DNA of 64,000 nucleotides from a virus (lineage: Duplodnaviria > Caudoviricetes). The stretch lies in the IMG/VR virus record IMGVR_UViG_3300037047_000246; one strand, given 5' to 3'. The notes under the pieces are model-generated. The model saw nothing but the letters and a program-made list of their open reading frames with translations. It ran no database searches and was not told the DNA's origin. Position numbers and translations under genes: made by a program. This document shows, one piece after another, positions 261 to 63,731 of the stretch; positions within the stretch are counted from its first letter, which is position 1, and every line of letters starts with the position of its first letter.

Positions 261-794
261 TCATTCTTCCATGATTGACCAGACCGCTACCGTGGCGTCA
301 GACAAACCCTCGATCGAAGAGAACTGAGGATTCTCGTCCGGGGTCCAATATACCATGCCCTGCGGCGAAAGCCGCAGCTTGCCCGACCACTCGACTTGCA
401 TCTCTTGTCTGGCCGGGAACGGCAGGCGCGCTCTTGCGTCAGCCACGGCCCGGCGGAACGCGCCGAACCATTCGGAAGCGGCCTGGTCCAAAGTCGGGTT
501 GTCGACTGCCAGCCGCACGCCTGCACCGGTCTCGAGGTAGGTGTTGCCAGAGTCACATATGAGGCTTACGCCAATGACCATGTCTCCATCTAGCGGCAGA
601 TCGAACTCTTCGAGGTGCCGCAGCGAGTCGGCGGCGTTGGCCACTTCCATGCATCTGTTAACATAAATCTCGGTTCTGGCTGGGGCCAGCTTGCGCCCCA
701 TGGCGACGGCTTTGCCCTCGGCGTTGCGCCTGGAGGCCGGCCGGGCTTGCAACTTGAACGCCTCGCTTATCCAACGCGCCGTCGCAGACTTCAT
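261..794 (-). CDS. hypothetical protein with C-terminal tag (IMEE)
   Basis: ATGA overlap with the Dam stop; ends ...TVAVWSIMEE. Confidence 0.7.
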   Translation of the reverse strand: MKSATARWISEAFKLQARPASRRNAEGKAVAMGRKLAPARTEIYVNRCMEVANAADSLRHLEEFDLPLDGDMVIGVSLICDSGNTYLETGAGVRLAVDNPTLDQAASEWFGAFRRAVADARARLPFPARQEMQVEWSGKLRLSPQGMVYWTPDENPQFSSIEGLSDATVAVWSIMEE

Positions 795-1627
795 TGGCAC
801 TCCGCGCAGTTGCTCACAAGGATCTCTGGCACAGATGTGCGTTTGTCTGGCCTACCCACACTGCGTGTGCCGGTGACCACCTCTACTTCAAAATCGCAAA
901 ACCACGCCGCATTGCCTGCCGCCGAGGAGTTAGACAAAACCTGTGCGACTCCGGCGCCGTCCAAACGTTTAAATGTCTCGACGAGCCTCAGGTGGTCTGA
1001 TGCAGCAAAGCCGCCAGACGTGTACTGGGTGAAGTTGGCTGTATTGGAAATAGGCAAGTATGGGGGGTCGTAGTAGACGGCGTCGCCAGGTCCTGCGTCA
1101 GTGCAAATGTTCTCGAAATCCGACTCGGCCAGCTCGGCCATCTGCAAAGCTTCCGAGCAGGCCCTCAAGTTGGCTTCGTCGCATGTCACCGGGTTTTCGT
1201 ACCGGCCGAAGGGCGTGTTGAACTGGCCTTTGCTGTTGACTCTGTGCAGGCCATTAAAACACGTTTTGTTCAAATAGATGGTGCGGGCAGCGCGCACCAC
1301 CGGAGTCATCTTGTCCGGGTCCGCCCGCCTGATGTCCAAGAAGGATTCGCGGTCATATTTATACTGCGACTGGCGCAACTCGCGCACCAGGTCATCGACT
1401 TGGTCTCGCACCGCCTGGAAAGCATTCATCAGCTCTGGACATTTATCGCCGATGACCGCGCGCTCAAATCGGCGCGTCCTCGCGAGTTCAAAAAAGACTG
1501 CGCCTCCGCCCAGAAACGGCTCGTAGTAAGTGCCGATGCGGGCCGGAAGCTTGGCCAGGATGCGTGACGCCAGGCGGCCCTTGCCTCCACACCATTTCAA
1601 GAACGGCCTTGTATGGGTATTCGACAT
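791..1627 (-). CDS. dam: Dam-family (D12 class) DNA N6-adenine methyltransferase
   Basis: PFLKWCGGK, YYEPFLGGGAVF (SAM binding), YLNKTCFNGLHRVN, YYDPPY catalytic motif; TATCGT 6 nt upstream of ATG 1627. Confidence 0.93.
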   Translation of the reverse strand: MSNTHTRPFLKWCGGKGRLASRILAKLPARIGTYYEPFLGGGAVFFELARTRRFERAVIGDKCPELMNAFQAVRDQVDDLVRELRQSQYKYDRESFLDIRRADPDKMTPVVRAARTIYLNKTCFNGLHRVNSKGQFNTPFGRYENPVTCDEANLRACSEALQMAELAESDFENICTDAGPGDAVYYDPPYLPISNTANFTQYTSGGFAASDHLRLVETFKRLDGAGVAQVLSNSSAAGNAAWFCDFEVEVVTGTRSVGRPDKRTSVPEILVSNCAECQ

Positions 1628-1691
1628 TGTTTTACGATACACCCCTTCGCAATCATTCGTCATACGGCAGACGAGCTGACCGACCTTAGAG

Positions 1692-2192
1692 TTATGTCTT
1701 CGCTATATCATCAGTTGATGAGTCTAAGAATTCCATCAGCGCGTCTCTGGTCATGGCGCCGTCTACGCGGTCCAACTGCACTTGTTGATACTCCATTCCG
1801 CACGCAGTGATGAGATGTGCGTCCAGCTCTCGTCGATATGCCTCGTCGAACACTACGCGGCGAATGCCGGAATTCACCAGCATTTTGAAGCAGTTGTAGC
1901 ATGGTGACAGCGTCACGTACGCGGTGGCGCCGTCGATGCAGGTACCATGTTTGGCAGCTTGCGCCACAGCGTTGATTTCTGCGTGGATCGTCCGCTGACA
2001 TCCGCCGTCAGGCCCGATCTCGCAACCTACATCTAAACAGTGCGGTTGACCGCGAATCGAGCCCGCATAGCCAGTCGACAGGATGGCCCTATCCCGGACT
2101 ATGACGCACCCGACTTGTTTGCGATTGCAGGTCGATCGCTCAGCGACGTTGCGGGCGATCGACAGGAAATATTCGTCCCAGCTCTTGCGCAT
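1692..2192 (-). CDS. dCMP deaminase (cytidine/deoxycytidylate deaminase family)
   Basis: WDEYFLSIA, STCNRKQVGCVIV, IHAEINA and TLSPCYNC Zn motifs. Confidence 0.93.
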   Translation of the reverse strand: MRKSWDEYFLSIARNVAERSTCNRKQVGCVIVRDRAILSTGYAGSIRGQPHCLDVGCEIGPDGGCQRTIHAEINAVAQAAKHGTCIDGATAYVTLSPCYNCFKMLVNSGIRRVVFDEAYRRELDAHLITACGMEYQQVQLDRVDGAMTRDALMEFLDSSTDDIAKT

Positions 2193-2277
2193 GGGACTAA
2201 GTTACATCTGCAGTGCCAGTGTTCAGGCTAAAGTGAGGTATCGGGCCTCTATCGGATTGCAGTCTGAACCTTCTGCA

Positions 2278-4239
2278 CTAAGCGGCCGTGTCTTTGCGGC
2301 GACGGCCACCAAGGTTGTTGGCCATGCGATCCGTCAGTATTGAGTCTTCGCTGAAGAGGCCGAGCATCGACATGGTGAGCGCAGCGGGAGAACGCAACTG
2401 CTCTTCGACGTCGTTGCGGCCCCAATTGGGGTCCCCCATGAAATGTTCAGAATGTGCAACCCGGGCCACCATGACCTCGCCGTACACTTCTTCAACAATG
2501 GCGTCTACCTTTTCGCCAGGCTTTGCTGGGTACATGTCTCGCCAGTATTTCTTGACCTCGGCCATGACTGTGTGATCGCGCGCCAGCTGAATTACGCCAG
2601 TCGGATGGTCTTTATTAGGTTTTACCCAAGAAGCGGCGTACGCCCGCTTGTTTTCCCCGTTGATATCAGCACACGTCACCCATTCGTATTCCGGCAGCCC
2701 GCACAGACTGGGCATTTTGACCGCTTCGACTCCGGTCTTGGTCGTCGGCTCACGCGCTGCGATGATGGGACGGTCCGCTCTGGGTTCGAACACCTCAGTG
2801 GTTTTCTTCGGGCAGGCGAGCGACGGCTGTGCTGCTTTGCCTGCGCTGCCTCTGCCCACCTGCGGCCCCTCTGCCAGAACTACCTGACCGCGCAGCGTTG
2901 TATTGATGTTGAAAGGGCCACCTTTTCTATGCACGTAGCGCACAACTGTCCAGCGCTTCGAAAACTCGCTTGCCAGCCTTTTGCGCCATTTGCCATCATC
3001 TAGAGTACCAGTATGCTCCGGCGTGGCAACGTTCATTGCGTCGCTGATAGCTTGCGGCATGTTTTCCGCAAACTCTTGCCCCCATTCGGCCCACGGCAGC
3101 GGTTCACCTGCCCGTTTTGTGCCTTGAACCTTCAGCGTGCTGCGGGCGCTGTCAGGGTATACGCCGTACGTGTCTGGCCCGCTCAGAGGCGGTTTGGCAA
3201 CAAGTGTCAGATTATCCCTCACCATCTTGTGGGTGACGCCAAAGCTGCGAAACTGTGCTGGATGCTGCTGCGTGTCGTACAACTCCGACTGATACAAAGC
3301 AGTGATGTACCCCTTTTCGTATCCATACGAGTGGACGCCGGGCCTCTCGCCCTTCCACAAATACCACTCGATTATGGTGCCGTCGCGCAGCGTTACGGAT
3401 CCCACTTCGATTTTCTTGACATTGGTTGACGTGTCGCCTCTCGCGCGCACTTGCCACACCAGATACTGAGCCCCGCGCACTTGCCGGCGATTCCATCGGC
3501 GGTCGCTTGTGCCTGACGCATCGGCCAGACTCCGCGGCCATCTGGCTCTTTTGTCCTTGCCGCACCTGAGCTCCTGCACCCAAATCTCAGTGTTGCCAGG
3601 CAAGTCCCAAAATCTCTTATTCAAATAAACGGTGATCGCCTTTTCGCCGTCTTCGCCGTCTCTGCCCAAAAACGTGTCTTCTGTTCCGTTGTTGCCAAGA
3701 CACACGACCACAGTGCCGTGGTCCTGAATCCACTTCGGCTTGACGTCTGACCACTCGGCGAATGGCTTAACTACGCTGTCATAAGTCGAGTCGCCGTTGC
3801 CATTGATCGTCTCGAACTTTTTCGCTCCGTACTCCTTGGAGACGGGGTCATACATGAGCCACACCATGGCGCCGTCCGGGCAAGCAGGGGTCCAAGATAT
3901 GACAACGACGCCGGCGCGATTCCACGGCAGCAGCGACGTCTTGGCACCGATGCCGAAGTTTTCATGCGCATCTCCGATAGGCTTACCTCCGCCGCCGAAA
4001 GTGTTCAAAAATTTCAGCAGGTCGTCCGGATCCATGCCTTTGCCGTTGTCAGCAACCATGAGCCTATACACGTCTCGGCGCGAGACGGCCTGCCACTCAG
4101 GGCCGAATTCCACCCGGGTAGCTCCGGCCTCCAAAGAGTTGCGCAGCAGTTCGCGCAGATACTGGCGCGGACTGCTTTCTTTGTAGGCACGCTCCACTAG
4201 GTGATGAACGCTAGTTACGACCATCGGCGTCAATGACAT
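2278..4239 (-). CDS. GHKL (Hsp90/MORC-like) ATPase domain protein
   Basis: Bergerat motifs ELLRNSLEAGA, VADNGKGM, NFGIGAK near the N-terminus; the C-terminal ~400 aa is unassigned; GGAGG RBS. Confidence 0.8.
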   Translation of the reverse strand: MSLTPMVVTSVHHLVERAYKESSPRQYLRELLRNSLEAGATRVEFGPEWQAVSRRDVYRLMVADNGKGMDPDDLLKFLNTFGGGGKPIGDAHENFGIGAKTSLLPWNRAGVVVISWTPACPDGAMVWLMYDPVSKEYGAKKFETINGNGDSTYDSVVKPFAEWSDVKPKWIQDHGTVVVCLGNNGTEDTFLGRDGEDGEKAITVYLNKRFWDLPGNTEIWVQELRCGKDKRARWPRSLADASGTSDRRWNRRQVRGAQYLVWQVRARGDTSTNVKKIEVGSVTLRDGTIIEWYLWKGERPGVHSYGYEKGYITALYQSELYDTQQHPAQFRSFGVTHKMVRDNLTLVAKPPLSGPDTYGVYPDSARSTLKVQGTKRAGEPLPWAEWGQEFAENMPQAISDAMNVATPEHTGTLDDGKWRKRLASEFSKRWTVVRYVHRKGGPFNINTTLRGQVVLAEGPQVGRGSAGKAAQPSLACPKKTTEVFEPRADRPIIAAREPTTKTGVEAVKMPSLCGLPEYEWVTCADINGENKRAYAASWVKPNKDHPTGVIQLARDHTVMAEVKKYWRDMYPAKPGEKVDAIVEEVYGEVMVARVAHSEHFMGDPNWGRNDVEEQLRSPAALTMSMLGLFSEDSILTDRMANNLGGRRRKDTAA

Positions 4240-4360
4240 GCTGACCCTCCAACCTCAGTGTTTTACACTGCACAAGACCGGTACACTCTGGCCTGCCGCA
4301 TTTACGTCGTCCCTCTCCGTCTGACTGAAGTCAGCAGTACTATGCGCAGAGAAGGTCCTG

Positions 4361-4585
4361 TCACGACTCCTGCACGTCCATGACGTCCATTATGCTGCGC
4401 GCATTGTCCCTGAAATACTCCAAATCGTCGATCCTCTGTTTAAGATCTTCAATTTCGCCAAGCTTTTTTCTGAGATCTCCGATTTGGCCGATGAGACTGG
4501 CAATCTTAGCTTGCATTGACCGTACGGCGCGTCCAGAAGCACGCCGTACGACTGCTGATTTTTTGCGCGTCGTCCGTTTCTTCAC
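4361..4585 (-). CDS. small coiled-coil protein with C-terminal tag (VQES)
   Basis: Heptad pattern IASLIGQIGDLRKKLGEIEDLKQRIDDLE; GTG start. Confidence 0.65.
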   Translation of the reverse strand: MKKRTTRKKSAVVRRASGRAVRSMQAKIASLIGQIGDLRKKLGEIEDLKQRIDDLEYFRDNARSIMDVMDVQES

Positions 4586-4703
4586 ACGACCACCATGCCA
4601 GTTTGGGTGAGTGCCTAAACTCCTGCACGTAAAACGACTACCTTATTCATGCATCTGCATACTTATGACTTAGTGTGGTTTACGCATTGCACACTGGACA
4701 TAG

Positions 4704-5147
4704 TTAACTTCCCATCACTTCCTCGGCGACCTTGCTGGTCAGCCGCTCGAAGTCCACAGACCTCTCCAGCAAGTTCCACAGCGGCTCGGCGGCGCATTCC
4801 ATCAGGAAAGACTCATATCTCCATCGCTGGTCTGTCCGGTTATGCTCGTCATATCTTGGCTCCAAGCGGCCGAGCTCTTTCTTGGTCTGACGCAGTGACA
4901 CCGTCATCATCACTATATTGCCGTACAGCTCCGGCAGCACAGTGCAGTGTGCTTGCGCCAAAATTCCGCTACTGCCTTGCCACGGCACGTGTTTCTCCGC
5001 TGAGAAGGTGACGGTAAACACGTCAGAATTGGATCCTGCGCCGTGCACGAACACGTTGAACGGGCAGTTGTCTACTGTGCTGGCGAGGCGCTTGAAGTCT
5101 TCGTCCATGCACGACACGACACTGCTTTTGAGGCGCCGGAAGTTCAC
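4704..5147 (-). CDS. hypothetical protein with C-terminal tag (VMGS)
   Basis: GTGA overlap with the upstream stop at 5144; ends KVAEEVMGS. Confidence 0.65.
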   Translation of the reverse strand: MNFRRLKSSVVSCMDEDFKRLASTVDNCPFNVFVHGAGSNSDVFTVTFSAEKHVPWQGSSGILAQAHCTVLPELYGNIVMMTVSLRQTKKELGRLEPRYDEHNRTDQRWRYESFLMECAAEPLWNLLERSVDFERLTSKVAEEVMGS

Positions 5148-5755
5148 GTCGCGCACCCATTCAAAGCCCCGACTGCTATCTGGTGTCGCCAGTCCATCGT
5201 GGCTGGGACACTGAGCGCGCAGCGCGAACACACAACGCAGTTGCCATTGTCTGCCCACTCGTGTCGGGTCTGCTTCTTGTTCAAAACCTTGGCTGGGCTC
5301 GCCACCCGCCAGCAGCTCTTGCCGACTGTGTGGTGTGCGGCGTACTGTGCGACGACTTCAGATGTCACCCTCCACATTTTCCCTATCTTCTTGCCTGGCA
5401 GGCGCCCTTCCCGCAACATCTTGACCATGGTCTGCGCGCATAGCCCGAGACGCTTTGCAGCCTCGGCTGCGCTCAGTCCGGCCTCAGTCTGCCGCGGCGC
5501 TACACGCAGCCCTGCGAAATTGCCTTCTGGCTGCAATCCAGCCATGGCCGCAAGCATTGCCTTAGCAGCCCAAGCCGTGCGGGCTGCTGCCGGCATGAGT
5601 CGCTTCACAGTGGGCAGAACCTCTTGTTCCCAGCCTGGCTTGGCCGCGACTGCGCGGCGCTGCATGCCCAGCAGGTTTCCGTGAAGCAGGTTTGCGTCTT
5701 TGACCGCTGCAGCCACCTGCTTGCGCAGCTTTGCGGCTCCGCGGCTCGTCTTCAT
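5144..5755 (-). CDS. excisionase/MerR-like helix-turn-helix (HTH_17) protein
   Basis: LSAAEAAKRLGLCAQTMVKMLREGRLPGKKIGKMWRVT. Confidence 0.75.
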   Translation of the reverse strand: MKTSRGAAKLRKQVAAAVKDANLLHGNLLGMQRRAVAAKPGWEQEVLPTVKRLMPAAARTAWAAKAMLAAMAGLQPEGNFAGLRVAPRQTEAGLSAAEAAKRLGLCAQTMVKMLREGRLPGKKIGKMWRVTSEVVAQYAAHHTVGKSCWRVASPAKVLNKKQTRHEWADNGNCVVCSRCALSVPATMDWRHQIAVGALNGCAT

Positions 5756-6159
5756 GAGTCCTGCACCTGCCTGGTCACCAGATCCTGCAAAAACTGCTGG
5801 AGCAGTTTTTTGGATGGGTTCTTCATGTACTTGATTGAACTCCCACCCTGCTGGATTGCTTCAAGCTGCACTTGTTCGGACGGCTGCTTGATGAACCGCA
5901 CAGCGGTCCAGTTTTGCTTGACTGCTGCAAGCTGTACTTGTTCGGACGGCTTATTGATGAACTGGATTGAGAAGCCGTTCTGTCGGACTGCCGCGAGCTG
6001 GACCTTTTCGGACGGGTTCTCGATGAACTGAGTCGCCTCACTGTTCTGCCGGACTGCTGTAAGCTGAAATATCTCTGAACACAGACCGAGCGCGCAGCGC
6101 AGACCTGACTCGAATGCTTCTTCAGGAGTCAGCCCGTGCTCTTGCAGCAGCTCTTTCAT
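5752..6159 (-). CDS. DUF4116-like 22-aa repeat protein with C-terminal tag (VQDS)
   Basis: 3-4 copies of PSEqVQLaAVrQNgxsIqFI; matching 66-bp DNA periodicity (ttcggacgg...gatgaac). Confidence 0.75.
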   Translation of the reverse strand: MKELLQEHGLTPEEAFESGLRCALGLCSEIFQLTAVRQNSEATQFIENPSEKVQLAAVRQNGFSIQFINKPSEQVQLAAVKQNWTAVRFIKQPSEQVQLEAIQQGGSSIKYMKNPSKKLLQQFLQDLVTRQVQDS

Positions 6160-6278
6160 GAGTCATGAACCTTCCGCAGGATGCACCGGGATTCGGGACA
6201 CTCCGGATCGTGGCAGAATTCGATCACTCCGCCCGCTCCGATCGAATACGAATGGCCGACAGGCACGTTCTCAGTCAT
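6156..6278 (-). CDS. 40-aa Cys/His peptide with C-terminal tag (VHDS)
   Basis: MTENVPVGHSYSIGAGGVIEFCHDPECPESRCILRKVHDS; ATGA overlap with the next gene; below the ORF-track length cutoff. Confidence 0.55.
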   Translation of the reverse strand: MTENVPVGHSYSIGAGGVIEFCHDPECPESRCILRKVHDS

Positions 6279-6365
6279 GATGATGTGCAGCGTCAAAGCA
6301 GACCCCGCGGAGCACGGATTGTGATGCGTATCGGGTGGGCAATCTTGATCATGTGACCGGGGGTT

Positions 6366-6602
6366 TCAAGACTGCATGATTCGGCGCACGAGCTGCCGAT
6401 TGCAATCAGAGTACACTTGGTCTCGCTTCAAATCTGCTGGCTGCGGCTTCCACCCGACGCAATCGCGCGGGTCTGTGTCGTCCGGCGCCGCCACTCGGCA
6501 CTCGGCGCCGCACTGGGTGCATCGCCAAATGAGCACGCACTTGCGCCGCTTTTTGCGCCACCCGATGCGATGGCGCGCCATCTGCCAGTCGTGGTTGAGC
6601 AT
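6366..6602 (-). CDS. Zn-ribbon protein with C-terminal tag (IMQS)
   Basis: WRCTQCG...DCNRQLVRRIMQS; start uncertain. Confidence 0.65.
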   Translation of the reverse strand: MLNHDWQMARHRIGWRKKRRKCVLIWRCTQCGAECRVAAPDDTDPRDCVGWKPQPADLKRDQVYSDCNRQLVRRIMQS

Positions 6603-6638
6603 GATTGGCGCTACTTCGTGCTGGCGGCGATTTCCGGC

Positions 6639-6902
6639 TCATATTGAGTGGATGTACATCACGAGAGCTTCCTCGTACGTAATTGGTACGATTGAATCTA
6701 AACTGTGCATTGCTCGCCACTGCGTAGCGCAGTCCTTGCACAGCGCATTAGGGCGCATAACCAGACTACCAAACCTCCCATCAATCGGTAGAAGTGTGCG
6801 CCACCATTCGACGGCAGGCTTACCGCATCGTTCTCCTTCCAGTTCAGGCCCCTCTACCAGAAGAATGACGCAACATCTGTCTGTGGGTAATCTTGCAATC
6901 AT
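6639..6902 (-). CDS. small Zn-binding family protein with tag (IHSI)
   Basis: RCGKPA...LCKDC...PITYEEALVMYIHSI. Confidence 0.65.
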   Translation of the reverse strand: MIARLPTDRCCVILLVEGPELEGERCGKPAVEWWRTLLPIDGRFGSLVMRPNALCKDCATQWRAMHSLDSIVPITYEEALVMYIHSI

Positions 6903-6946
6903 TCAGTGATGCTCGTGTGGTCGCTAGTCGGTCTTGCGCTTGGACT

Positions 6947-7177
6947 TCATATGTCTTTTCCCATGCCCCATCCGGACTTGAACTCTTCGAACTCCTGCTC
7001 AGTGCCGCCGCCGGAGACTTCGAAAGCTTCGCGGATTTCGGCGTCCTCAGGGTCGTCTGAAAGAACAGAATCGCGGCGAATGCGGCAGAATGCGCAAGAG
7101 CAAAGCTCAGACCGAACTTCCATCAGTATCTTGCCAAGCTCGTTGCGGCCTTCGCCACCGACCTGCCCCCAAAGGTG
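6947..7177 (-). pseudogene. NADAR family protein, detached C-terminal part
   Basis: HLWGQVGGEGRNELGKILMEVRSEL is the canonical NADAR C-terminal WG..G.N.LG..LM..R motif; joins in frame to 7970-8311 if 7178-8311 is flipped. Confidence 0.85.
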
Positions 7178-7232
7178 GTGAGTCGTGAGGCAGCTTGTAA
7201 AACTCTGACTTGAAATTGGTACTGTTGGCAGA

Positions 7233-7541
7233 ATGAACAGAGATTGCACCAAAGGAATTGCTGGCTGTAAGTGCGCAGCTGGCTTCAAGCCAGAAGAGCA
7301 GTGCCCGGAGTGCCGGGAGGACGGAAGAAGGTATTCATACTGCATGTGTCCGCCAGATTTCGAACACGAGCGTCCTGTTAACACGGCCTCGGCCTCTGTC
7401 GAGGACAAATTGGCCGCTGCCAAAAGTTCGCTGCTTGAATTGTCTGAATACTCTGGTCCGCTGGCCGTTGAGCTTAGGGCCCGCAAAGTCATGCTGATAA
7501 AATCCCTCGAAATACTGATGAAACATCCTGAGAGCAAGTGA
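7233..7541 (+). CDS. Cys-rich hypothetical protein
   Basis: CTKGIAGCKC, CPEC, YCMCPPD; lies inside the inversion. Confidence 0.6.
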   Translation: MNRDCTKGIAGCKCAAGFKPEEQCPECREDGRRYSYCMCPPDFEHERPVNTASASVEDKLAAAKSSLLELSEYSGPLAVELRARKVMLIKSLEILMKHPESK

Positions 7542-7583
7542 GCGTGCCCCAAACTGAGCGCATGCCGGAAAGTAGAGTCCGGC

Positions 7584-7808
7584 ATGCGCTCATTTGTCGC
7601 CATTTTTATGCTCTTGGCAGGGTGCGGATCGCAAGACTCCCGACCTGCTTACACTTGCATGAAGGCACTCGACGCGTCTCGATGCGGCAGACACACCGCG
7701 TGGGAATGCACTCACGGCGTGGTGCCGGACGGCTGCACAGAAGCTGACTTGGGGCATCTTGAAGGATACGATTGGGTGGTGTGCTGCCCGCCAGGGCAGA
7801 CGCCGTGA
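7584..7808 (+). CDS. small Cys-rich lipoprotein
   Basis: MRSFVAIFMLLAG-C lipobox. Confidence 0.65.
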   Translation: MRSFVAIFMLLAGCGSQDSRPAYTCMKALDASRCGRHTAWECTHGVVPDGCTEADLGHLEGYDWVVCCPPGQTP

Positions 7809-7969
7809 CAAATCGCGTCTCAGCTGCTTTCTCTGATTGTAAACTTGCTGACACCTGAACGGTCTAACATGGGCGCGACTCTGCCTGCGGCGGAAATCTG
7901 TGCAGGTCCCGAGTACGAGGCACAAGCGAAGTTTTAACCCGGTGCCGGTTGCGGCCGGTCAGGTGACTC

Positions 7970-8311
7970 ATGACCACGATCGATTCTTTCAGCGGAGAGT
8001 TTGAATTTCTGTCGAATTTTTACCCGTGCCAGGTCATGTTTGACGGCGTGGTGTGGAAAAGCGTGGAGCATGCGTACCAAGCAGCCAAGACAGACAGCTG
8101 CAAAGAGCGCACCGCAATCTACGGAGCGACGTCGCCAGCCAGAGCCAAACGGCTTGGCGCAAAAGTGCGCCTGCGCAAGGGGTGGGATCAGCTCAGGTTA
8201 GGCGTGATGAAAGAACTTGTCCGAGACAAGTTTGTGCGCAGTGCCGAGCTGCGGCAAAAACTTATCTACACCCAGCACGCGCAGCTTGTGGAAGGTAACA
8301 CATGGGGCGAC
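7970..8311 (+). pseudogene. NADAR family protein, N-terminal part
   Basis: FLSNFY, SVEHAYQAAK, AKRLG, VMKELVRDKF, LVEGNTWGD; homology stops at 8311 and the track ORF continues into unrelated sequence. Confidence 0.88.
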
Positions 8312-8501: not shown

Positions 8502-8531
8502 GTCACCCCTCCCCTCGGACCTGGAAGCACA

Positions 8532-54049: not shown

Positions 54050-54142
54050 ATATCCTCCATTCCTAGGGGATTACGCCAAAAGCGGCAGCACTTCCACCTT
54101 CTACTAGCTGCTTGTTGATCAGTTTGGCCAGTACCTCATGGT

Positions 54143-56243: not shown

Positions 56244-56450
56244 TTACTCTTCCATGACCGCCTTCACTTGCCTCTCGTCGCAGTCAGTCAGTTCGTATTC
56301 GCCCAGTTTGTAGATGGTTTCTCGAATTGTGCCAGAGATGCTGGTCAGCTTCAAGCCACACTTGGCACATGCGAAGTTCCTGCCAATGAGCTGCCAACGG
56401 TGCGGGGCAGTTTTAAGCTGCGTCTGAGTATTTGTGCGTCTAGCGTTCAC
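56244..56450 (-). CDS. Zn-ribbon protein with tag (VMEE)
   Basis: HRW..FACAKCG..TDCDERQVKAVMEE; GTGA-coupled. Confidence 0.65.
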   Translation of the reverse strand: MNARRTNTQTQLKTAPHRWQLIGRNFACAKCGLKLTSISGTIRETIYKLGEYELTDCDERQVKAVMEE

Positions 56451-56632
56451 GACTCCTGCACCAGTTCAACCTCAGTTTCAGCGTACTCGTCCAAGTGCTC
56501 TCGACATAGCATCATTCCGTCTACTGGAGAGCCGCAAGACAACGCTCCGGCGATCTCCCCGTCGCATTCTGCCACCGAGCAAACACCGCGAGTGATGTTG
56601 GAAGGACTAAACACTCCAATAAATCGCGCCAT
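56447..56632 (-). CDS. 61-aa Zn-binding protein with tag (VQES)
   Basis: MARFIGVFSP..CSVAEC..LCREHLDEYA..VQES; TAAGAT 5 nt before the ATG. Confidence 0.75.
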   Translation of the reverse strand: MARFIGVFSPSNITRGVCSVAECDGEIAGALSCGSPVDGMMLCREHLDEYAETEVELVQES

Positions 56633-57395
56633 GCTAAATCTTACATTCCGGCTCGCGATCCAAAGAAGCTTCATCCTCGGTGATCGGAGCTACTTCACAG
56701 CGCAGCAGCGCGTTCTTCACCCACCCCATGAACTGTCCGTTGTGCTCAAGCTGCAAGAGCGTGAATTCGGGCCCCAGCGGCAGCAACGGCCCGCTTGTGT
56801 GCATGCGGGTTGTTATAATGAGCTGCCTCGGCGCGGTGATACGCGTCTGGCGATAACCTGGTGCCTAGACAACTGCGTCCGATACGCTCTCCCACTTGCC
56901 TCTCTGACAACGAGCTTTGGTGCTTGACCAAATCCGTACTTCAAGTTACGCCGGACTTGCGCCCCAGCAGAGAGCGCGCCGACTCGGCGGCCCGGCGCTC
57001 GACAGTTCGGATCTCCATCGTCACGACCTCCCAGCTGGTCGGAATGCGCATCTTAGGGTGATATCTGTTGCCGCGCTCAAGCATCAGCAGGTGGGCCCGC
57101 ACTTCCGCCCTGGTCTTCCAGACTTTTCCGACCGGGTTGAACCTAGGGCCCTACCCGCCCGTGGAATACAATCCGGTCTTGCTGTCCCGGATCTTGAGCC
57201 CTATGTCGGACAGGCAGCTGTCGATGTCGCAGGTGGCCAGCAGCCTCCCAGCGAGCGCTATCAGCTGCCTGTCGTGGTCGTGCGATTCCCAATCCTTGAT
57301 GAGCCATTTGCGCGCTTCGGCCAGCTGCTTATCCGACAGCGGACCCTTGCGCTTCACCAAGTCTTCAAGCTTCGCGGGCATGCAGCGGCGTGTGC

Positions 57396-57701
57396 TCACG
57401 GCACCACTTCCCAGTCGGTCGCGAGCAGCTCTTCGGTCGAGGGCGTCCAGCCGACGTCAATGGCACCACTGACGTGCGCCATGGCGACGAACCGGCAGTC
57501 GTCACCCGACATGCTCGTGCCAGGCCCGGCTTCCGCCACCACGTTTGGCGAGCAGCTTGCGAGAAACAGGTAGCGGCTGCCGTTCCAGGACTTGCGGCTG
57601 ACCCGCCCGCCTTTGCGCAGCCACGCCAGAGCGAAACTGAAGCTGCCAGTCGGCATGCCAGAGCTTTCAATCGCAGCCTGCCTGATTTCTTTACAGCTCA
57701 T
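57396..57701 (-). CDS. DUF2829/Tad2-like protein (candidate Thoeris anti-defence sponge)
   Basis: FSFALAWLRKGGRVSRKSWNG..YLFL..WTPSTEELLATDWEVV. Confidence 0.8.
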   Translation of the reverse strand: MSCKEIRQAAIESSGMPTGSFSFALAWLRKGGRVSRKSWNGSRYLFLASCSPNVVAEAGPGTSMSGDDCRFVAMAHVSGAIDVGWTPSTEELLATDWEVVP

Positions 57702-57999
57702 GAATTTTCTCGCACTCGAACTCGTTTATCACCGGAAGGTCCAGCTCGCGCACCGTCCCAAGGAACGGCGAACGCGGTGCCCTGGGATGCCCGCTCAGTG
57801 CCCACCACGAAAAACTCCCCGGTCGGACGCTAGGCACTGGCGACACTGAGGCGGAAGCTTCTGTGACGACATTGAACACTTTTGTTCTGTTGTTGAGCAC
57901 TGGGATCACCGTGCCATGATCTTTTTTGAAGTCATGAGTGACGCACAAAGTAGCCGCACGCGTGTTCGGGTGTGTTTCGGTCGGGGTACTGGCACGTGT

Positions 58000-58305
58000 T
58001 CATCGCGCCTCCTTATTGTTGGTCCGCCGGGCGATCTCCATGCCCTTGGCGAGCGACCAGTTTATTGGGACGGTCAGGTCGAAGTCGTCCTCCTCGAGCC
58101 GGCGCCCGAGCCGGGATTCCAGGCAATCGAAGCACAGCTCGACGTGTTTCAACGCATCGTCCTTTGTGCCCTTGTGTTGCGCCACGACTTGCCGTTTGAT
58201 ATGCGGGTAGTCTGGGAACGCTTGTGACCACACGTGCTGGCGAACCATATAACTTGGAGATCGCCCGCCACAGTCCCAACATGCCAGCGGCCTACGTTTT
58301 TGCAT
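58000..58305 (-). CDS. CxxC Zn-binding hypothetical protein
   Basis: CWDCG..YMVRQHVW..LCFDCLESRLGRRL. Confidence 0.65.
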   Translation of the reverse strand: MQKRRPLACWDCGGRSPSYMVRQHVWSQAFPDYPHIKRQVVAQHKGTKDDALKHVELCFDCLESRLGRRLEEDDFDLTVPINWSLAKGMEIARRTNNKEAR

Positions 58306-58416
58306 TGCCCGACCTCAGTGATGTCGAAGCGCTGCAAGCAGCGCTTGCATCCGAGCTTGTTGAACCAGTCGTAGCCTTCGTCATCAATCCAGTTGGGTAT
58401 TTGCGGCTCCCGCAGT

Positions 58417-58635
58417 TTACAGCGAATGCACCTCGGCCGCCTCGGCCTCGGCTCGCGTGCACTCGCACTCGACGATGGACACGTTTTGCCAAGTCCCATT
58501 CCGAATAGATTGCCAGCAAGCGGCGCACACGGCGACCGGCGCGCTGCTTCCGTCGGGAAAAATTGCCCAGCGCTCGGGCGCGCCGTGCGAGCCGTCGTCC
58601 CACTCGCAGCGATCGAGCGACCGGCGCGCAGTCAC
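58417..58635 (-). CDS. small Zn-binding family protein with tag (VHSL)
   Basis: RCEW..VCAAC..CTRAEAEAAEVHSL. Confidence 0.6.
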   Translation of the reverse strand: MTARRSLDRCEWDDGSHGAPERWAIFPDGSSAPVAVCAACWQSIRNGTWQNVSIVECECTRAEAEAAEVHSL

Positions 58636-59000
58636 GGCTTGGTCCTATAGGGCGAGTCTGGCCGGGCGCCGGGCTTCAGGCGCACCGTCACCTCAAGCCG
58701 GCAAATGTCTCCCTTAAGGGCCAACCAGTCGGTTGTCTCAATCTGCTCGGCCGTCAGGCCGAGCAGATCTTGCGCCCACTGCTGCACCAGCTGGCAGACG
58801 TCCAACGCATCGAACACTATCTTCATATCTTCAGTCTCCAACGTGCAGCCTTTCCGGAGCAGCGAGCGGCCTCGCCAGTTAGAGGACCACGGCAATCTTA
58901 CTGCGAACGAGTCAAAACTTCCGGAGGCAATGTCACGATTGCATCGTTTACTCCTCGCGGTCGGAAATTTGAACTGGCGACGCCGTGCCTGGGCGGAGCG

Positions 59001-59990
59001 TCACAGGCGGCTGTCCCAGGCTTTGCTGGAAATCTTGACGTATGCCTCGTTGCGATAGGTGACGCGCACATTGTTGCCTTCCGCATCAGCCACGATAATC
59101 CCTCCGAGCAAACCCGCCTGCCCAGGCCATCCCCACCGGATTTCGCGCTCGTTTTGGCAGGACTCCGACCCATACTTGCGGGAGATGTCGCGCACAACCT
59201 CAATTAGCGTCGCTGCCCAGCTTGGATTGTCCCTCTTGTAAGCAAACACCGCGATTGCGCACACCGTGCCGGAGCACATATGCAGTTGCGCCCACTCTTT
59301 CGAGAACCCCAAGGTTTGCGGCACGCCTCTTAGGCAGTAGAAAGCCCGCATGCCGCGAAAAGATGAGGGCCGTTCCACCATCTCTACCCCTGTGGACTGG
59401 TGGCACAGGCTATTAGCCTGTGCCAGGGTCATGCCGAAAGAAAATCCCGCCAAACCTTTGGGCAGCGGCGGCCTGGACGGCGGCGCAAACGTCCCCTCAT
59501 CCGAACAAAGGCCGGGGTCTGGCGGGGGCGGGGGCGGGGGCGCGTTCTGCACCGGCACTGCGGCCACAGGCTCTGCGGTCGGAGCAGGCAAAGGCGGGGC
59601 TGTTGAAGACTCGGGCTCCTCGGATGCTTTCTGCTCCAGGTCTTTGGCTGCCCGCCTGATGTCCGCGTCTCCTGCCAAGGTTGCCAACTTGGCCGCTTCT
59701 TGAGCCAGCAGGACTGCTTGAGCCCGATTGCCCTTGGACAGGTGGCGCAAGGCGCCGGCCAGGCGGATTTTGGCCATCTCCGACCGGGCTTCCGAAGCCG
59801 CCCTCGTGTTTCCCCAAAGCCGGACGACAGCCGCGTAGTCGTCGAACTCTTCGGACTCCCTGGCTTGCTCCAGCGCCGAGAGGGCTTTGGCTTCGCGGTC
59901 TGTCATTGTGCGCGGCGGGGGGCCTAGCGTGGCGGGCTCGGCGCAGCCAAGCGCCAAAGCAAAACAGAGCGCCAAAAATTTGAGAGCCAT
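59001..59990 (-). CDS. lipoprotein with TPR-like helices and Pro-rich linker
   Basis: MALKFLALCFALALG-C lipobox; TAAAAT 5 nt before ATG 59990. Confidence 0.75.
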   Translation of the reverse strand: MALKFLALCFALALGCAEPATLGPPPRTMTDREAKALSALEQARESEEFDDYAAVVRLWGNTRAASEARSEMAKIRLAGALRHLSKGNRAQAVLLAQEAAKLATLAGDADIRRAAKDLEQKASEEPESSTAPPLPAPTAEPVAAVPVQNAPPPPPPPDPGLCSDEGTFAPPSRPPLPKGLAGFSFGMTLAQANSLCHQSTGVEMVERPSSFRGMRAFYCLRGVPQTLGFSKEWAQLHMCSGTVCAIAVFAYKRDNPSWAATLIEVVRDISRKYGSESCQNEREIRWGWPGQAGLLGGIIVADAEGNNVRVTYRNEAYVKISSKAWDSRL

Positions 59991-60138
59991 GGGAAATTTT
60001 ACTTCGAACAGGCTCAGGTTTCCGGCCTCCGGAAACCTGCAAGCTCGCCGAGAAAGGATGGCGAAATGAGCGGCGACGGTTGCCATGCCGAAATCTTACG
60101 GCGCGGGAGGCCGGATTTGCGCCGGTGTAAGTAGGAGC

Positions 60139-60792
60139 ATGGACAAAGCATATGCAAAAAAGTCTTTGAGCGCCGGAAGTCTGAGCAAGAGAGAGACGGA
60201 GGCAGACCCCGAATGGGACGCGGAGGTGTCGCAAGCGCTGTTGGAGCTTGCCGCCGTCAGGCTGGCCGAACAGGATGCCCGAGCTGCCGCGAACGCCATG
60301 GCTCGGGTGCGCCGGCGCAAGAAGGCCGCAGACGCGATGTCGGCGGCGATCCAGGAAGTCGTGCCTGAAGCGCTGGCCATGCCTGTGGAGGTACGCGCAG
60401 ACGAGTCCGGCTGGCCGCGGGTCTGGCTGGGGCAGGAGGTCGTGCGGATGCACCTTGGAACCGCGGAGTCTGTGCTCGAAGGCCGGATGATCGATATGGC
60501 AGCCTCCCGGTGCTCCGTCGCCCAGACCGGGATGAACAGCCTGGACGAGGGGGATTTGAGCGACTTGCCGAGCTGGGCTGCCATCAACCCCAAAGCATGG
60601 GCTGCCAAAACGCAGGAGCTCGTCCGAGCATGGGCGCAGATGGAGCTGCAGACGGCAGCCATGTCGCTCAGCGCGAAGACGGTGGTGATGTCGGGCATCT
60701 CGAGAGCGGAGCTCGGTGAGATGTTCGCCCAGGCGTGGGACCGAGCCCAGTGCCAGGACGTGCACGAGGAAGAAGGGTCCCAGGAACAGTGA
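60139..60792 (+). CDS. hypothetical protein with near-terminal extended tag (VHEE)
   Basis: GISRAELGEMFAQAWDRAQCQDVHEE-EGSQEQ; AGGAG RBS. Confidence 0.7.
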   Translation: MDKAYAKKSLSAGSLSKRETEADPEWDAEVSQALLELAAVRLAEQDARAAANAMARVRRRKKAADAMSAAIQEVVPEALAMPVEVRADESGWPRVWLGQEVVRMHLGTAESVLEGRMIDMAASRCSVAQTGMNSLDEGDLSDLPSWAAINPKAWAAKTQELVRAWAQMELQTAAMSLSAKTVVMSGISRAELGEMFAQAWDRAQCQDVHEEEGSQEQ

Positions 60793-61778
60793 CGGTAGCC
60801 GCGCGATGAATCAGCCCTTCGGAGCTTCGGGCTTGGGGCTTGAACCCCAAATGTCTTCTGATCGATCCGCTTCTGATCCGCGGCTTTCTGGTGCGCCCGC
60901 CGGGCCGCCTAGCAGGCGGTTTATCACCTGGCCGAGCAATAGGCCGAGCAATAGTCGCACACCGGATAGCCATTCTCCATGTTCTCGTTTCCTGGCACAC
61001 CGCCGCGCAAGCCCGAACAGCGCACACAAGAATCTCTGTGCGCCTGTGGAATCATGCGCAGCAGTTCCCGCCGCATGTCAAGGTTACCGTCACGGAGCGC
61101 GATTGCTGCCGCGTCTCGCAACGCGAACGCCTGTGCCGCATCCCAAAGATCGCCAAGCGCCGTTGAGACGATCGGCCCCTTGATTGGGTCCGCGTACCCG
61201 CGCGCCTGCGCAAACTTGCGGTACATTGTCAGAATGTTCGTGTTGTTTGGCTGGTCATTCATTCCGCCATCCTCCTCACTTCCAGTGCCAACTCATCCAC
61301 CCTATCCAACATCCGCTGACTCGTGGTCCGATGCCCATCCTCAGCCGCGTCGCTCTCCGCGTTGCTCCGTGAGTTGCGTCAGCCGCCTTCGTCCCCGTCG
61401 TCCAAGTCGCGCTCCTCGAACACATCGTCGGCGTCGAACCGCACCTCGTACGTGTCGATGTCCACGGGCGTGCACCCAGAGGAGTCGTAGCGGCCCCAAG
61501 AAAACTCTTTCTCGACTTTCTCGGCTGCAGCTTGAGCGGAGGCGGCCCGGACGCGAACGGTGCCGGACACGACAATTTCGACCGGGACGAAGAACTCTTG
61601 ATCCTCTTCCATGATGTCTCGCACCCGCTGCTCATTGTGCTTGCGCTCCTGCTTCTGGCTCTGCATTCCCATTTGCTAACCTCCAGCCAGGCGCTACGCT
61701 GCGGCAGCGGAGATTTCCGCGGTTCGACCGCCCCGGCGGACCGGGCCTGACTGAACATTGTCTGCGCGGACTGGCCGG

Positions 61779-62012
61779 TCACTCCCAATGCACCTGCGCG
61801 GCCAGAAACTCGTCCGGAGAGACGTCGATCGCATTGAACAGCGGCCTCATTTTGTTGTGCTCAGAACATAGGGCGAACGGCGCGCCGTTCTCAAGCACGA
61901 GCAGGCTTGCTGCACGCTTGCTGCAACGCTTGCTGGAAGAGCCTGACCCAGACCTCTTCCAGCGCCAGGAACACTGGAAATCGGAATCATTGACTGCGTA
62001 AGAAGCGCTCAT
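61779..62012 (-). CDS. small Zn-binding family protein with tag (VHWE)
   Basis: QCSW..RCSKRAA..ALCSEH..DVSPDEFLAAQVHWE. Confidence 0.65.
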   Translation of the reverse strand: MSASYAVNDSDFQCSWRWKRSGSGSSSKRCSKRAASLLVLENGAPFALCSEHNKMRPLFNAIDVSPDEFLAAQVHWE

Positions 62013-62333
62013 GACTCGCCTCTCTTCGCCTCTTCGCGGGTCTCGGCCCACGCGCGTCCGAGCACGATGCCGAACGACGCCCCGGCGAGCAGCCCGACCA
62101 GGAACAAAATCACTTGGGCCTCCCGCCCTTTGCCAGGAAGCAATCGTCCCAGTCTCATTTTGCCTCCACGGCGCACCAGCAGTCCAAGGCGATCGTGGAG
62201 ATGCGCCGCGCGTCCGCCGGACACGCCTTGGCGTCGCATCGATGCTTTGCGTAGACCGCCCACGCCACCAAGAGGGCGACGGGCACCGCGACGATCAGCA
62301 CCGTGAGCAGGAAGGAAGGCGGCTTGGTCTGCT

Positions 62334-62540
62334 TCACTTCTGAACTCCTTCGTGCTTGCACCACTCCGCAGCTTGAGACTCGCAAGCTGAAATGCCAAAT
62401 CGGCACTGCACTTCAAACATGCCACTGTCTTCTACTCTGGGCGCAGACTGCATCGGGAGCTGCGGCGGCAAAATTGCTCCGTCGTACCCGCATCCGAGAA
62501 GCGCTACAGCAAGAATCGGCGCGGAAAGCTTCAGCATCAT
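62334..62540 (-). CDS. small lipoprotein
   Basis: ILAVALLG-C lipobox; ATGA-coupled. Confidence 0.55.
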   Translation of the reverse strand: MMLKLSAPILAVALLGCGYDGAILPPQLPMQSAPRVEDSGMFEVQCRFGISACESQAAEWCKHEGVQK

Positions 62541-62986
62541 TGCCTCGTCATGCGGCATTTGTAGGTGGATTGGCACCAGGAGCCGTCGCCGCAGTCGATC
62601 CTCATAGTGTCGATGCTGTCGGCTGACGAGCCATCCTGCGCAAAAGTGGTCATATAGGTCTCGGACACCGTACAACCGCCATGCTGTTTGGCGAATGGGG
62701 TCTGAGACTCATAGGAGCAGCCCGTGCCGCGGGCAGCGCAACCGTCTTGCGACAGAGCGTCGCAAGACACAGACGACAGGTCCGCTGCGCCGGCCGAATC
62801 AGTGTTGAAGACAGAGTCCGCAAGCGGGCCGCAATTTCCGGACTGCTCGACGCAAGAGACGACGTAAGTGGCATTCTTGGTCGCGCACGGGTTGAGCTGG
62901 TTCCGAACTTTTTCAGAATCGGGATCGTTAGAAGAGCAGCCGATGGCCGAGATGACCAAAAACGGCAAAAATCGCATGAGCTGCAT
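62537..62986 (-). CDS. Cys-rich lipoprotein
   Basis: FLVISAIG-C lipobox; GGAGG RBS; related to 53636-54049. Confidence 0.75.
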   Translation of the reverse strand: MQLMRFLPFLVISAIGCSSNDPDSEKVRNQLNPCATKNATYVVSCVEQSGNCGPLADSVFNTDSAGAADLSSVSCDALSQDGCAARGTGCSYESQTPFAKQHGGCTVSETYMTTFAQDGSSADSIDTMRIDCGDGSWCQSTYKCRMTRQ

Positions 62987-63285
62987 GAAACACCTCCGCA
63001 AGCTGTGAGTGGGAAATTGCGCTGTCAAAATTTCCAACAACCGTGCCTCTGAGAAAGTCGGAAGGGTTTACAGCTGAAGCGGCGAAACTTACGAGACGGG
63101 CAGTCCGCCGAAGGACAGCAGCCTCCAGCGCGACAGGCGGTTGCGCACAGCGGCTTGCAGGCCGTCGGAGCGGACGACCCGAGCGACCCTGTGCTTGTCC
63201 ATGAATGAAAGAGCCTCGGACAAATTGGAAAACTGCCGGCCGGGAAGGACCCAATGGCGGCCTTGGGCGATTTGGACGAAGAAGG

Positions 63286-63519
63286 TCATGAGCAGCGCAC
63301 CTGGTCCAGGAGCTCGAGGGCGTCGGCCTCTTCGGAAGAGATTTCGCGGACGGGCTCGTTGAGGCGGGGCTCGCGGGACCACTCGATCCACCACAAGGAG
63401 TGCTCCTCGCAGACGCGGGAGACGGAGACGCCCCCAGGCCTGCCCTGGGCGAAGAAGCGGGCGGCGGGGAGGTTGCAATGACACAGAGGCCCGGCATGCT
63501 TGCAAAGATTGCCGCTCAT
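63286..63519 (-). CDS. small Zn-binding family protein, tag variant (VRCS)
   Basis: CHCNLPAARFF..VCEEH..EISSEEADALELLDQVRCS. Confidence 0.65.
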   Translation of the reverse strand: MSGNLCKHAGPLCHCNLPAARFFAQGRPGGVSVSRVCEEHSLWWIEWSREPRLNEPVREISSEEADALELLDQVRCS

Positions 63520-63731
63520 GACGAATGCACCAGCAGGACGGAATATTCGGCGGCCGAGACCTCGGAATACATGCCCATCAGGAGGGACGCCAGATCGTCG
63601 TGGCTCTTGCACAGGGCGAACGGCAGGCCCCGGTCGGACGCCCAGCACCGGAAAGCGGGCTGCCCGCACCGCTCATAGGGATGGCCGCCGTAGATGAGCC
63701 AACGGCAGGGAAAGTCGGAAGGGCTTGCCAT
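63516..63731 (-). CDS. small Zn-binding family protein with tag (VHSS)
   Basis: PCRW..RCGQPAF..ALCKSH..EVSAAEYSVLLVHSS. Confidence 0.7.
   Translation of the reverse strand: MASPSDFPCRWLIYGGHPYERCGQPAFRCWASDRGLPFALCKSHDDLASLLMGMYSEVSAAEYSVLLVHSS

Follow-up and report, generated by a model that had tools for sequence, protein, structure and literature searches.

A shared C-terminal peptide on small accessory proteins of a huge groundwater phage: a candidate helical docking motif

Here, we analysed a 64-kb stretch of DNA (IMG/VR record IMGVR_UViG_3300037047_000246; the whole stretch is called the window below), which has 57% GC, carries its genes mainly on the minus strand and is part of an uncultivated huge groundwater phage. 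Many of its small proteins end in the same short peptide, in which Val, Ile or Thr stands fourth and Met, His or Gln third from the C-terminus ([VIT][MHQ] at positions -4/-3); this ending, with the residues that precede it, is referred to as the tag. The tag is strongly enriched, keeps a fixed register to the chain end, is under selection at the protein level, occurs on an unrelated known fold and is conserved in related phages. We lean, without great confidence, towards the view that it serves as a short helical docking motif at the C-terminus, for which we infer a single conserved partner, the reader.

The ending is enriched in a single register

The original prediction had listed 35 C-termini of this kind, where about 2 would be expected among ~120 genes. 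All of them are present at their stops, 33 on the minus strand and two (18918 and 20767) on the plus strand, but the one at 13505 (DVSET) breaks the pattern at -3. The enrichment itself turned out to be stronger than proposed. In our own gene set, obtained with a self-trained codon-usage caller, 31 of 120 genes carry [VIT][MHQ] at -4/-3 in comparison to 1.5 expected (binomial P 6.8e-32), the expectation being based on the share of this dipeptide among internal dipeptide positions (1.21%). The excess persists in comparison with internal positions and is confined to the -4/-3 register; at the neighbouring offsets -2, -3, -5 and -6 the same dipeptide was counted in 2, 0, 1 and 2 of these genes, respectively. 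Five further tagged genes, initially missed by our caller, were added later, and the count then reached 35 of 122.

A similar result was obtained with gene calls made independently of ours. Calls from public assemblies cover two accessory regions of the window (261-11223 and 39546-58826, 62 genes), and 25 of the 62 are tagged (P 1e-31). Together with a third independent set, that of contig L006, which covers 59001-64000, these calls contain 26 of the 27 listed tagged genes that lie in the covered regions, the exception being 6156-6296. Two tagged open reading frames (ORFs) beyond the original list were found in our own calls only, a 40-aa one at 55302-55424 (-), ending DVMEQ, and an 85-aa one at 57691-57948 (-), ending KIHEL. 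Among uncalled ORFs of at least 40 codons the ending is found in 16 of 878 (1.8%). As a further control we used L001, an unrelated 37-kb phage contig that was the sole match in a search with a 924-aa tail-fibre protein of the window, with which it shares a fibre domain; none of its 29 genes is tagged.

The tag is also unevenly distributed between kinds of proteins. Across the window and two relatives, 67 of 176 genes of up to 200 aa are tagged, in comparison to none of 30 longer genes (Fisher 3e-6). In the assembly calls two larger tagged exceptions are found, the 220-aa gene at 54612 and a 275-aa gene just outside the window, thus the confinement to small proteins is a strong tendency and not a rule. 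Absence of the tag from recognisable enzymes and from the tail and virion block, which had been claimed as well, is borne out: between 24432 and 39863 there is no tagged gene.

The 275-aa gene lies about 4 kb ahead of the window start and ends DIMNA. Just past the other end (64001-66175, reached through contigs L006 and L007), two of four complete genes are tagged (WEVQNS and AEVHDS). Since tagged genes are found on both outer flanks, the tag continues beyond the window.

The tag is conserved in distant relatives

Relatives of the phage were found with the profile of a C2HC zinc-finger family of tagged proteins (described below), for which an exhaustive search of 1.8 billion representatives gave members outside the window. 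The contigs of these members, a family search and loci taken from a scan of metagenomes provided five short contigs and two 20-kb loci, L014 (of a 430-kb contig) and L017 (of a 64-kb contig). By the collections' own gene calls, 14 of 41 genes are tagged in L014 (P 4e-17) and 18 of 43 in L017 (P 1e-23). Among the short contigs, all four complete small genes of L009 and three of four in L010 are tagged. The register is the same as in the window: in L014 and L017 taken together the dipeptide stands at -4 in 32 of 84 genes, at -3 and -2 in none, and at -5 and -6 in one each. Moreover, a matrix trained on the window and scored without the two defining positions gave +5.6 for the relatives' tags and -9.8 for internal matches (P 2e-15).

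Orthologues were defined as reciprocal best matches between the three genomes (the window, L014 and L017) and are 27-87% identical. In 17 pairs both members are tagged, in 23 neither is, and 5 pairs are discordant. The last ten residues of tagged pairs are 62% identical in comparison to 53% for the body (Wilcoxon 0.012); identity reaches 88% at -4 and 82% at -3. Untagged pairs show the reverse, with 52% identity at the C-terminus and 66% in the body. Thus, the search for the tag in related phages, which had been proposed as a check, shows that it is conserved in distant relatives and that it is more constrained than the bodies that carry it. His and Met exchange at -3 between orthologues (EVHES/EVMES, NTHES/NTMEE). 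Since each such exchange needs at least two base changes, this argues that both residues are functionally equivalent at this position. The three sub-classes that had been distinguished within the tag therefore do not stand as separate signals.

Both loci also encode a homologue of ribosomal protein bL12 (L7/L12), at 949-1338 in L014 and 243-611 in L017, and a tagged gene (ending AVHDC and SVHDC, respectively) follows directly after it.

Carriers of the tag: zinc fingers and unrelated bodies

The carriers had been described as unrelated, and this is true of one half of them. The other half, approximately, falls into two zinc-finger paralogue families. In the C2HC family (CxxC, 8-16 residues, then H-P-D-N-G-C) there are 10-11 window proteins, whose chains end exactly 12 residues past the last Cys. 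Four to six more, including those at 61779, 63516, 6639 and 49966, belong to the second family (C..C..CxxH, then [ST]xxE...VH). In both families the last zinc ligand is followed by a helix, and this helix is the tag. Altogether, CxxC or Cx4C is present in 17 of 35 tagged proteins, the proteins at 52875 and 56447 form a paralogue pair, and body-to-body matches at E<=0.01, although they join just 4 of 528 tagged pairs, are about 15 times commoner there than in other pairs.

These data are what one would expect if there were no address system, and if zinc-finger-plus-helix ancestors had given rise to fast-evolving paralogue families whose bodies diverged, with the helix intrinsic to the fold or to its activity (e.g., a contact with nucleic acid or polymerase). 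We consider this explanation unlikely, for it accounts poorly for the remaining carriers. They have no detectable body similarity; some of them, of 110-190 aa, lack Cys motifs (261, 4704, 10470, 17812, 18508, 42619, 49436 and 50395) and are unlike the fingers. Intramolecular packing poorly explains why one face should recur on different bodies, and a constraint on the helix would still need a function.

The clearest carrier outside the zinc-finger families is a DUF4116 repeat protein of 135 aa (5752-6159, -), with the body at residues 27-124 and the tag, ending QVQDS, at 125-135. When 37 tagged or near-tag proteins were compared with Pfam and PHROG profiles, significant matches were obtained for this protein only, and they stopped at residue 124 of 135; the DUF4116 profiles span residues 27-124 only. 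No Pfam or PHROG profile covers the tag, in agreement with the claim that it belongs to no recognised family. Among the 120 best database homologues of the DUF4116 protein, just one ends in [VIT][MHQ]xx. Since the profiles stop before the tag and the homologues, with this single exception, do not end so, the tag was added to at least one unrelated, well-known fold, and its supposed portability is confirmed in this case.

The tag is predicted to form an acidic helix with one conserved face

The motif extends beyond the two defining positions and is 12-16 residues long. Its consensus has Asp or Glu at -14 and -11, Glu at -10, Val at -7 (22 of 35), Val, Ile or Thr at -4, Met, His or Gln at -3, Glu, Ser or Asp at -2 and Ser or Glu at -1, with Cys at -12 in one sub-family; the information content is ~20 bits. 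The last residue of the 35 tags is Ser in 15, Glu in 9 and hydrophobic in 4. Positions -4 and -3 are coupled: Met, His or Gln occupies -3 in 26 of 33 genes with Val at -4, and in none of 9 genes with Leu at -4. Leu at -3 was found in no tagged gene. In leave-one-out scoring without -4/-3, tags reached +3.05 bits in comparison to -10.3 bits for internal [VIT][MHQ] windows (P 9e-16), and untagged C-termini scored -10.4 bits.

The segment has the composition of a helix, with 0.37 Pro and Gly per 14 residues as against 1.6-1.9, and a net charge of -2.0. On a helical wheel, positions -14, -11, -10, -7, -4 and -3 all fall inside a 120-degree wedge. In an AlphaFold2 model of the DUF4116 protein (75-sequence alignment, pLDDT 91) the tag ends a helix formed by residues 117-134 (pLDDT ~92). 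A model of a C2HC finger, of low confidence (pLDDT 62), shows a beta-hairpin followed by the tag helix. Zinc ligation by the residue at -3 together with Cys -12 was ruled out, as the two are nine residues apart and lie on opposite faces of the helix.

A helix of this type could also work without a dedicated reader, either by associating with other tags (in oligomers or a condensate) or by capping the domain that carries it. The i/i+3/i+4 hydrophobic pattern and the beta-branched residues are as in coiled-coil cores, and the V/I-[MHQ] pair is enriched also three residues upstream, so that the motif is partly a three-residue repeat. We nevertheless find this explanation improbable: the net charge of about -2 and the acidic residues on the conserved face disfavour self-association, and a cap would leave unexplained both the fixed distance to the chain end and the restriction of -3 to Met, His or Gln with exclusion of Leu.

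Selection acts on the peptide and not on the nucleotide sequence

The information profile of the aligned gene ends is three-periodic and concentrated at codon positions 1 and 2, with no conservation past the stop. Information at third positions is 0.02-0.16 bits at -10, -13, -22 and -25, and up to 0.6 elsewhere (e.g., -16 and -7). Codons for Val (-4 and -7), His, Gln and Glu are used as is typical of the genome. Between orthologues, tag codons show proportions of synonymous differences (pS) of 0.3-0.7 and of nonsynonymous differences (pN) of 0-0.17. The 38-aa C2HC zinc-finger gene at 13313-13429 (-), ending DVMMP, and its L010 counterpart have identical tags separated by 4 synonymous changes (pS 0.69, pN 0.03; body pN 0.27).

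The position of the next gene varies as well. For 14 tagged genes in the independent calls, the gaps from the stop to the next start are 111, -4, 34, 62, 46, 1005, 20, 198, 17, -1, 156, -4, -29 and -4 nt, that is, in 9 of 14 the next start lies at least 17 nt downstream; on the other hand, seven genes have 4-nt overlaps and no tag. Thus, after codon bias and ATGA/GTGA overlaps have been taken into account, the tag is upheld as a feature of the protein. The sole trace of selection at the nucleotide level is that A or G is favoured as the last sense base, which fits the frequent ATGA/GTGA overlaps in tight arrays. TAG stop codons are rare in tagged genes (3 of 67, in comparison to 22 of 109 untagged; genes of up to 200 aa in the window, L014 and L017; Fisher 0.0035), while TAG closes seven genes in the tail block. 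Gene overlaps account for the preference for TGA, but not fully for the avoidance of TAG.

These features of the stop bear on the idea that the ending acts in cis, as a nascent peptide in the exit tunnel which modulates termination, ribosome release or re-initiation. Such a role would explain the exact register to the stop, TAG is avoided and TGA preferred, and the relatives encode bL12. Yet no base past the stop is constrained, three stop codons are in use, and the preference for TGA comes largely from the overlaps in tight arrays. Gaps from -29 to more than 1000 nt point to no common downstream event, conserved residues on one helical face are characteristic of binding after folding, and it would be costly to place an arrest signal on one gene in three. 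We therefore give this explanation little credence.

Hardly credible is the remaining one, namely that the ending is a nucleotide by-product of the next gene's Shine-Dalgarno sequence or start codon, or of a recombination or cassette boundary: GTGATG resembles the GGTGAT of an extended Shine-Dalgarno sequence, ATGA/GTGA overlaps exist, the ends NNA-TGA and NNG-TGA are frequent among tagged genes, Ser at -1 uses TCA or TCG in 8 of 11 cases in comparison to 32% genome-wide, and NTG spans the stop in 46 of 67 tagged genes vs 56 of 109, but third codon positions are low in information, the codons are genome-typical, next starts are mostly distant, overlapping genes may be untagged, orthologues keep the peptide despite synonymous changes, and ORFs that are not genes remain at their 1.8%. 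An artefact of ribosome-binding sites or overlaps was rejected, as there is neither a fixed distance from motif to start nor conservation at the nucleotide level. A cassette boundary or recombination site was rejected as well, the sequence being unconserved past the stop and third positions largely free.

A docking motif and its putative reader

A shared docking or addressing signal predicts action at the protein level, portability, exclusion from enzymes and virion proteins, and conservation, and all four are supported by the data. One reader is the most economical explanation for one helical face on many bodies in a fixed register to the chain end. Among the small accessory proteins (35-220 aa, mostly orphans) of a clade of huge phages from groundwater and sediment, ~30-40% keep the helix through selection at the protein level. 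Its 12-16 residues lead to exactly two polar or acidic residues under loose constraint, with which the chain ends freely. The putative reader, which could belong to the phage or be a conserved hub of the host, would bind all tagged proteins and treat them as one class. Since the upper half of the tag is acidic and the lower half is built of Val, Val and Met, we predict that the reader has a basic rim and a hydrophobic pocket which is closed approximately one helical turn beyond -3.

What docking would lead to can be ranked. Recruitment to a phage or host machine seems the most likely fate, and chaperoning or timed proteolysis would come next. Further possible fates are loading into the virion and modification of the C-terminus; for the last one we have a weak lead. 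A gene for an ATP-grasp enzyme of the R2K clade (PF14243/PF18299) lies between two tagged genes in both large loci (L014 18871-19770, L017 17377-18276). The window orthologues of the two flanking genes (10939-11223 and 10470-10937) adjoin each other, and no R2K gene was found in the window or in the flanks examined, this syntenic position included. R2K enzymes occur sporadically in phages and are predicted to modify proteins as peptide ligases, on targets not yet known (PMC4431377; PMC7824862).

A more far-reaching version, which we offer tentatively, is addressing on the scale of the proteome. Here one reader, most likely phage-encoded, would recognise the acidic-hydrophobic helix along with the chain end close to it. 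One third of the accessory proteome, probably upwards of 100 proteins in each genome, would pass through this reader for delivery to a single machine or compartment, loading for injection, timed destruction or C-terminal modification, for instance by the R2K ligase.

Several observations weigh against docking to a reader. With about half of the tagged proteins in the two zinc-finger families, the count is in part a result of family expansion. The hydrophobic moment of the tags (0.239) is not above that of average internal segments (0.249). Some C2HC relatives have Ser, Cys, Asn, Asp or Val at -3 (NVSDS, DVCES, NVNES, DVDES, NVVES). The best score of the position matrix in the window (25.4 bits) belongs to an internal copy in the 107-aa gene 40066-40389, at residues 63-78 (40156-40203, -; ALVREVMEE, then PQDE), after which 29 residues follow; this gene may be a tagged gene fused with a downstream ORF, or the internal copy may be tolerated. 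In addition, one orthologue ends VMEEE in place of VMES. Given this orthologue and the internal copy, the free end is usual, but not absolute. Finally, the avoidance of TAG stop codons may reflect an early expression class or a link with termination.

Comparison with known terminal signals

Encapsulin cargo-loading peptides are short, C-terminal and portable, lie outside the folded body and dock unrelated proteins to a shell of the HK97 fold, a relative of phage capsids. They are Gly/Ser/Leu-rich and extended, their cargo genes stand beside the shell gene, and each system has a handful of cargoes. The tag resembles them as a short C-terminal peptide on different bodies. It differs in being an acidic helix with a chain-end register, carried in each genome by tens of proteins and probably by more than 100, and its sequence ([DE][E]xxVxxV[MHQ][ED][SE], poor in Gly and Pro) departs from the Gly/Ser/Leu-rich consensus. 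No encapsulin shell family was among the Pfam and PHROG matches of the scanned window proteins, most of which are orphans.

In phage T4, the internal proteins IPI, IPII and IPIII carry a capsid-targeting sequence that is N-terminal, is removed by the prohead protease, occurs on few proteins and routes them to the prohead core. It is likewise a short, phage-encoded terminal peptide common to small, otherwise unrelated proteins, whereas the tag is C-terminal and marks roughly one accessory gene in three.

In the ssrA/ClpX degron, the C-terminal tip of SSB and the EEVD motif by which Hsp70/Hsp90 bind TPR clamps, the reader takes the terminal residues together with the free carboxylate; these motifs have 3-8 residues, are extended, and their last residue is strongly constrained (Ala, Phe and Asp, respectively). 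The tag is acidic plus hydrophobic, as are the SSB tip and EEVD, but it is helical, its last two residues are loose and its constraint lies at -3, -4, -7, -10 and -11. Instead of the two or three non-polar final residues of the ssrA/ClpX type (such as LAA), tags end mostly in Ser or Glu after Glu, Ser or Asp. Ligands of PDZ domains and tail-specific proteases have a hydrophobic last residue in an extended strand; in the tags, that residue is hydrophobic in the 4 of 35 counted above and the segment is predicted to be helical.

Effectors of the Dot/Icm (type IVB) system of Legionella, of which there are hundreds, have a C-terminal signal that is Glu-rich ~10-17 residues from the end and hydrophobic 3-4 residues from the end, with small polar residues, according to PMC4431377 (citing Nagai 2005 and Kubori 2008); the effectors are otherwise unrelated, and a single recognition machine deals with all of them. 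With Asp/Glu at -14, -11 and -10 and Val/Ile/Thr at -4 the tag shows a likeness to it that is limited to composition. The Dot/Icm signal, loose and for the most part unstructured, keeps no exact register and needs a type IV coupling complex, while the phage tag is sharp and helical. Terminal peptides that bring otherwise unrelated proteins to a single partner are thus already known, and none of those compared shares the sequence, helical character, register rule or scale of the tag. No account of such a tag came up in searches of the literature.

Tagged genes along the window

The tagged genes described above and those below lie on the minus strand unless a plus is given. In the left accessory region, the independent calls contain genes at 261-794 (177 aa, ending SIMEE), 4361-4516 (51 aa, ending IMDVMDVQES with three V/I-[MQ]-[DE] repeats) and 4704-5147 (147 aa, EVMGS). 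Next to the DUF4116 gene lies the 46-aa ORF 6156-6296, which has a TTG start, ends KVHDS and is present in our calls, not in those of the assembly. It is followed, again in the independent calls, by a Cys-rich protein of 78 aa (6366-6602, RIMQS), an 87-aa one (6639-6902, YIHSI), a 63-aa one (8532-8723, HVMTI), whose orthologues in L014 and L017 are both tagged, and a 111-aa one (9037-9372, QVMDG). The 155-aa gene 10470-10937 ends SVMTD and its L017 orthologue (37% identity) TTMED, while EVQES closes the adjacent 94-aa gene 10939-11223 as well as both its orthologues in L014 and L017.

A cluster of C2HC genes follows. The 69-aa gene 12918-13127, with the HPDNGC signature, ends NTHES and has orthologues ending NTHES, NTHEE and NTMEE. 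Beyond the gene at 13313 lies the near-tag paralogue of 71 aa (13505-13720), which has Ser at -3 in its DVSET ending. At 13747-13917 there is a 56-codon stop-to-stop frame with a good tag ending, ELNCETGLMEDVHES, in which only 8 codons lie past the first ATG, GTG or TTG; it may be what remains of a C2HC paralogue after decay, or else a gene whose start is unusual. Further on, a 110-aa gene (15456-15788) ends ETMEA, and its L014 orthologue (34% identity) RVMEA. Our own calls add two genes of 136 aa, 17812-18222 (EVMSA) and 18508-18918 (+, GVMLE), one of 163 aa at 20276-20767 (+, KVMAE), and a Cys-rich one of 76 aa at 24432-24662 (WTMEE).

To the right of the tail block, all tagged genes named here are in the independent calls. 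They begin with a C2HC zinc-finger gene of 68 aa (39863-40069, QVMNS), followed by 42619-42960 (113 aa, LIMEI), 42957-43262 (101 aa, DVMES) and 47593-47976 (127 aa, HVMCE). The 170-aa protein of 49436-49948 (GVHAS) had no homologue among 5.8 billion protein clusters. After it come a 76-aa protein of the C..C..CxxH class (49966-50196, EVQNS), 50395-50934 (179 aa, HIHES), 51353-51604 (83 aa, EVHSE) and 52610-52828 (72 aa, LVHSE). The paralogues 52875-53060 (61 aa) and 56447-56674 (75 aa) end RVQES and LVQES. Between them lie the 220-aa gene 54612-55274, which has a C-terminal C2HC finger and ends NIMSG, and a C2HC-like gene of 68 aa (56244-56450, AVMEE). The last ones are 58417-58635 (72 aa, EVHSL), 61779-62012 (77 aa, C..C..CxxH class, QVHWE) and a paralogue of the latter, 63516-63731 (71 aa, LVHSS).

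Surroundings of the tagged genes and database searches

Apart from long arrays of small orphan genes, the window encodes a D12 adenine methyltransferase, a sigma factor, and proteins resembling dCMP deaminase, a GHKL-type ATPase, IMP dehydrogenase and adenylosuccinate lyase. The deaminase, of the dCMP/MafB19 type, lies at 1692-2192 (-), and a NADAR-domain protein at 7970-8386 (+). The region 25.5-39.3 kb is occupied by very large tail-fibre-like proteins, one of them papain-like (a C1-family peptidase domain at 33478-34305, -) and one with collagen repeats (38410-39285, -). An untagged 101-aa gene at 57396-57701 (-) has a precomputed Pfam match to the Tad2-like, anti-Thoeris family (PF11195), which suggests that the surrounding array of small genes may include counter-defence genes.

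Inside the tagged arrays there are untagged genes on the opposite strand (window 11409-12846 and 16312-16713, both +). This plus-strand set is 48-72% identical across the three genomes, above most tagged genes, and comprises two proteins of 136 and 133 aa, a DUF5661 protein, and a basic one of 90 aa that has two DnaJ-like zinc motifs (CxxCxGxG). The DUF5661 proteins (window 12304-12846, +; L014 14391-14690; L017 11283-11615) start RIA-x-[KR]VA-x-GWQD and end in a tag-like stretch, KLA[VE]ME[GS/N], to which an acidic extension is joined.

Sequence identical to the window is present in groundwater and coal metagenome assemblies. For a test of selection within the population no strain variation was found, as the other assemblies are 100% identical; contigs compared over 20 kb differ at only 4 single bases. 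Fragments of the region are present in a run from an RNA library, which is not a proof of transcription, as the reads of that run are contigs and carry-over of DNA is possible. Megablast of the window against the phage collection gave zero matches, and an exact-match search of IMG/VR with the window gave none. No relatives were found in IMG/VR with the 460-aa and 653-aa window proteins, and no match with the C2HC family alignment. Tblastn with the purB-like, IMP-dehydrogenase-like and sigma-factor genes returned generic homologues only, and the orphan P0001 had no homologue besides itself. The 653-aa GHKL-ATPase-like protein was considered as a chaperone candidate, and none of the solved structures matched.

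Significance

Huge phages carry hundreds of small orphan genes that lack a handle for study, and the tag, which selection has preserved between relatives with orthologues of just 35-70% identity, sorts a third of them into one functional class. A peptide of 12 residues is of the size of a bait, and could thus serve as an experimental handle for the reader. Such a reader, if real, would stand at the centre of the infection programme as a hub, and the tag could become a portable targeting tool.

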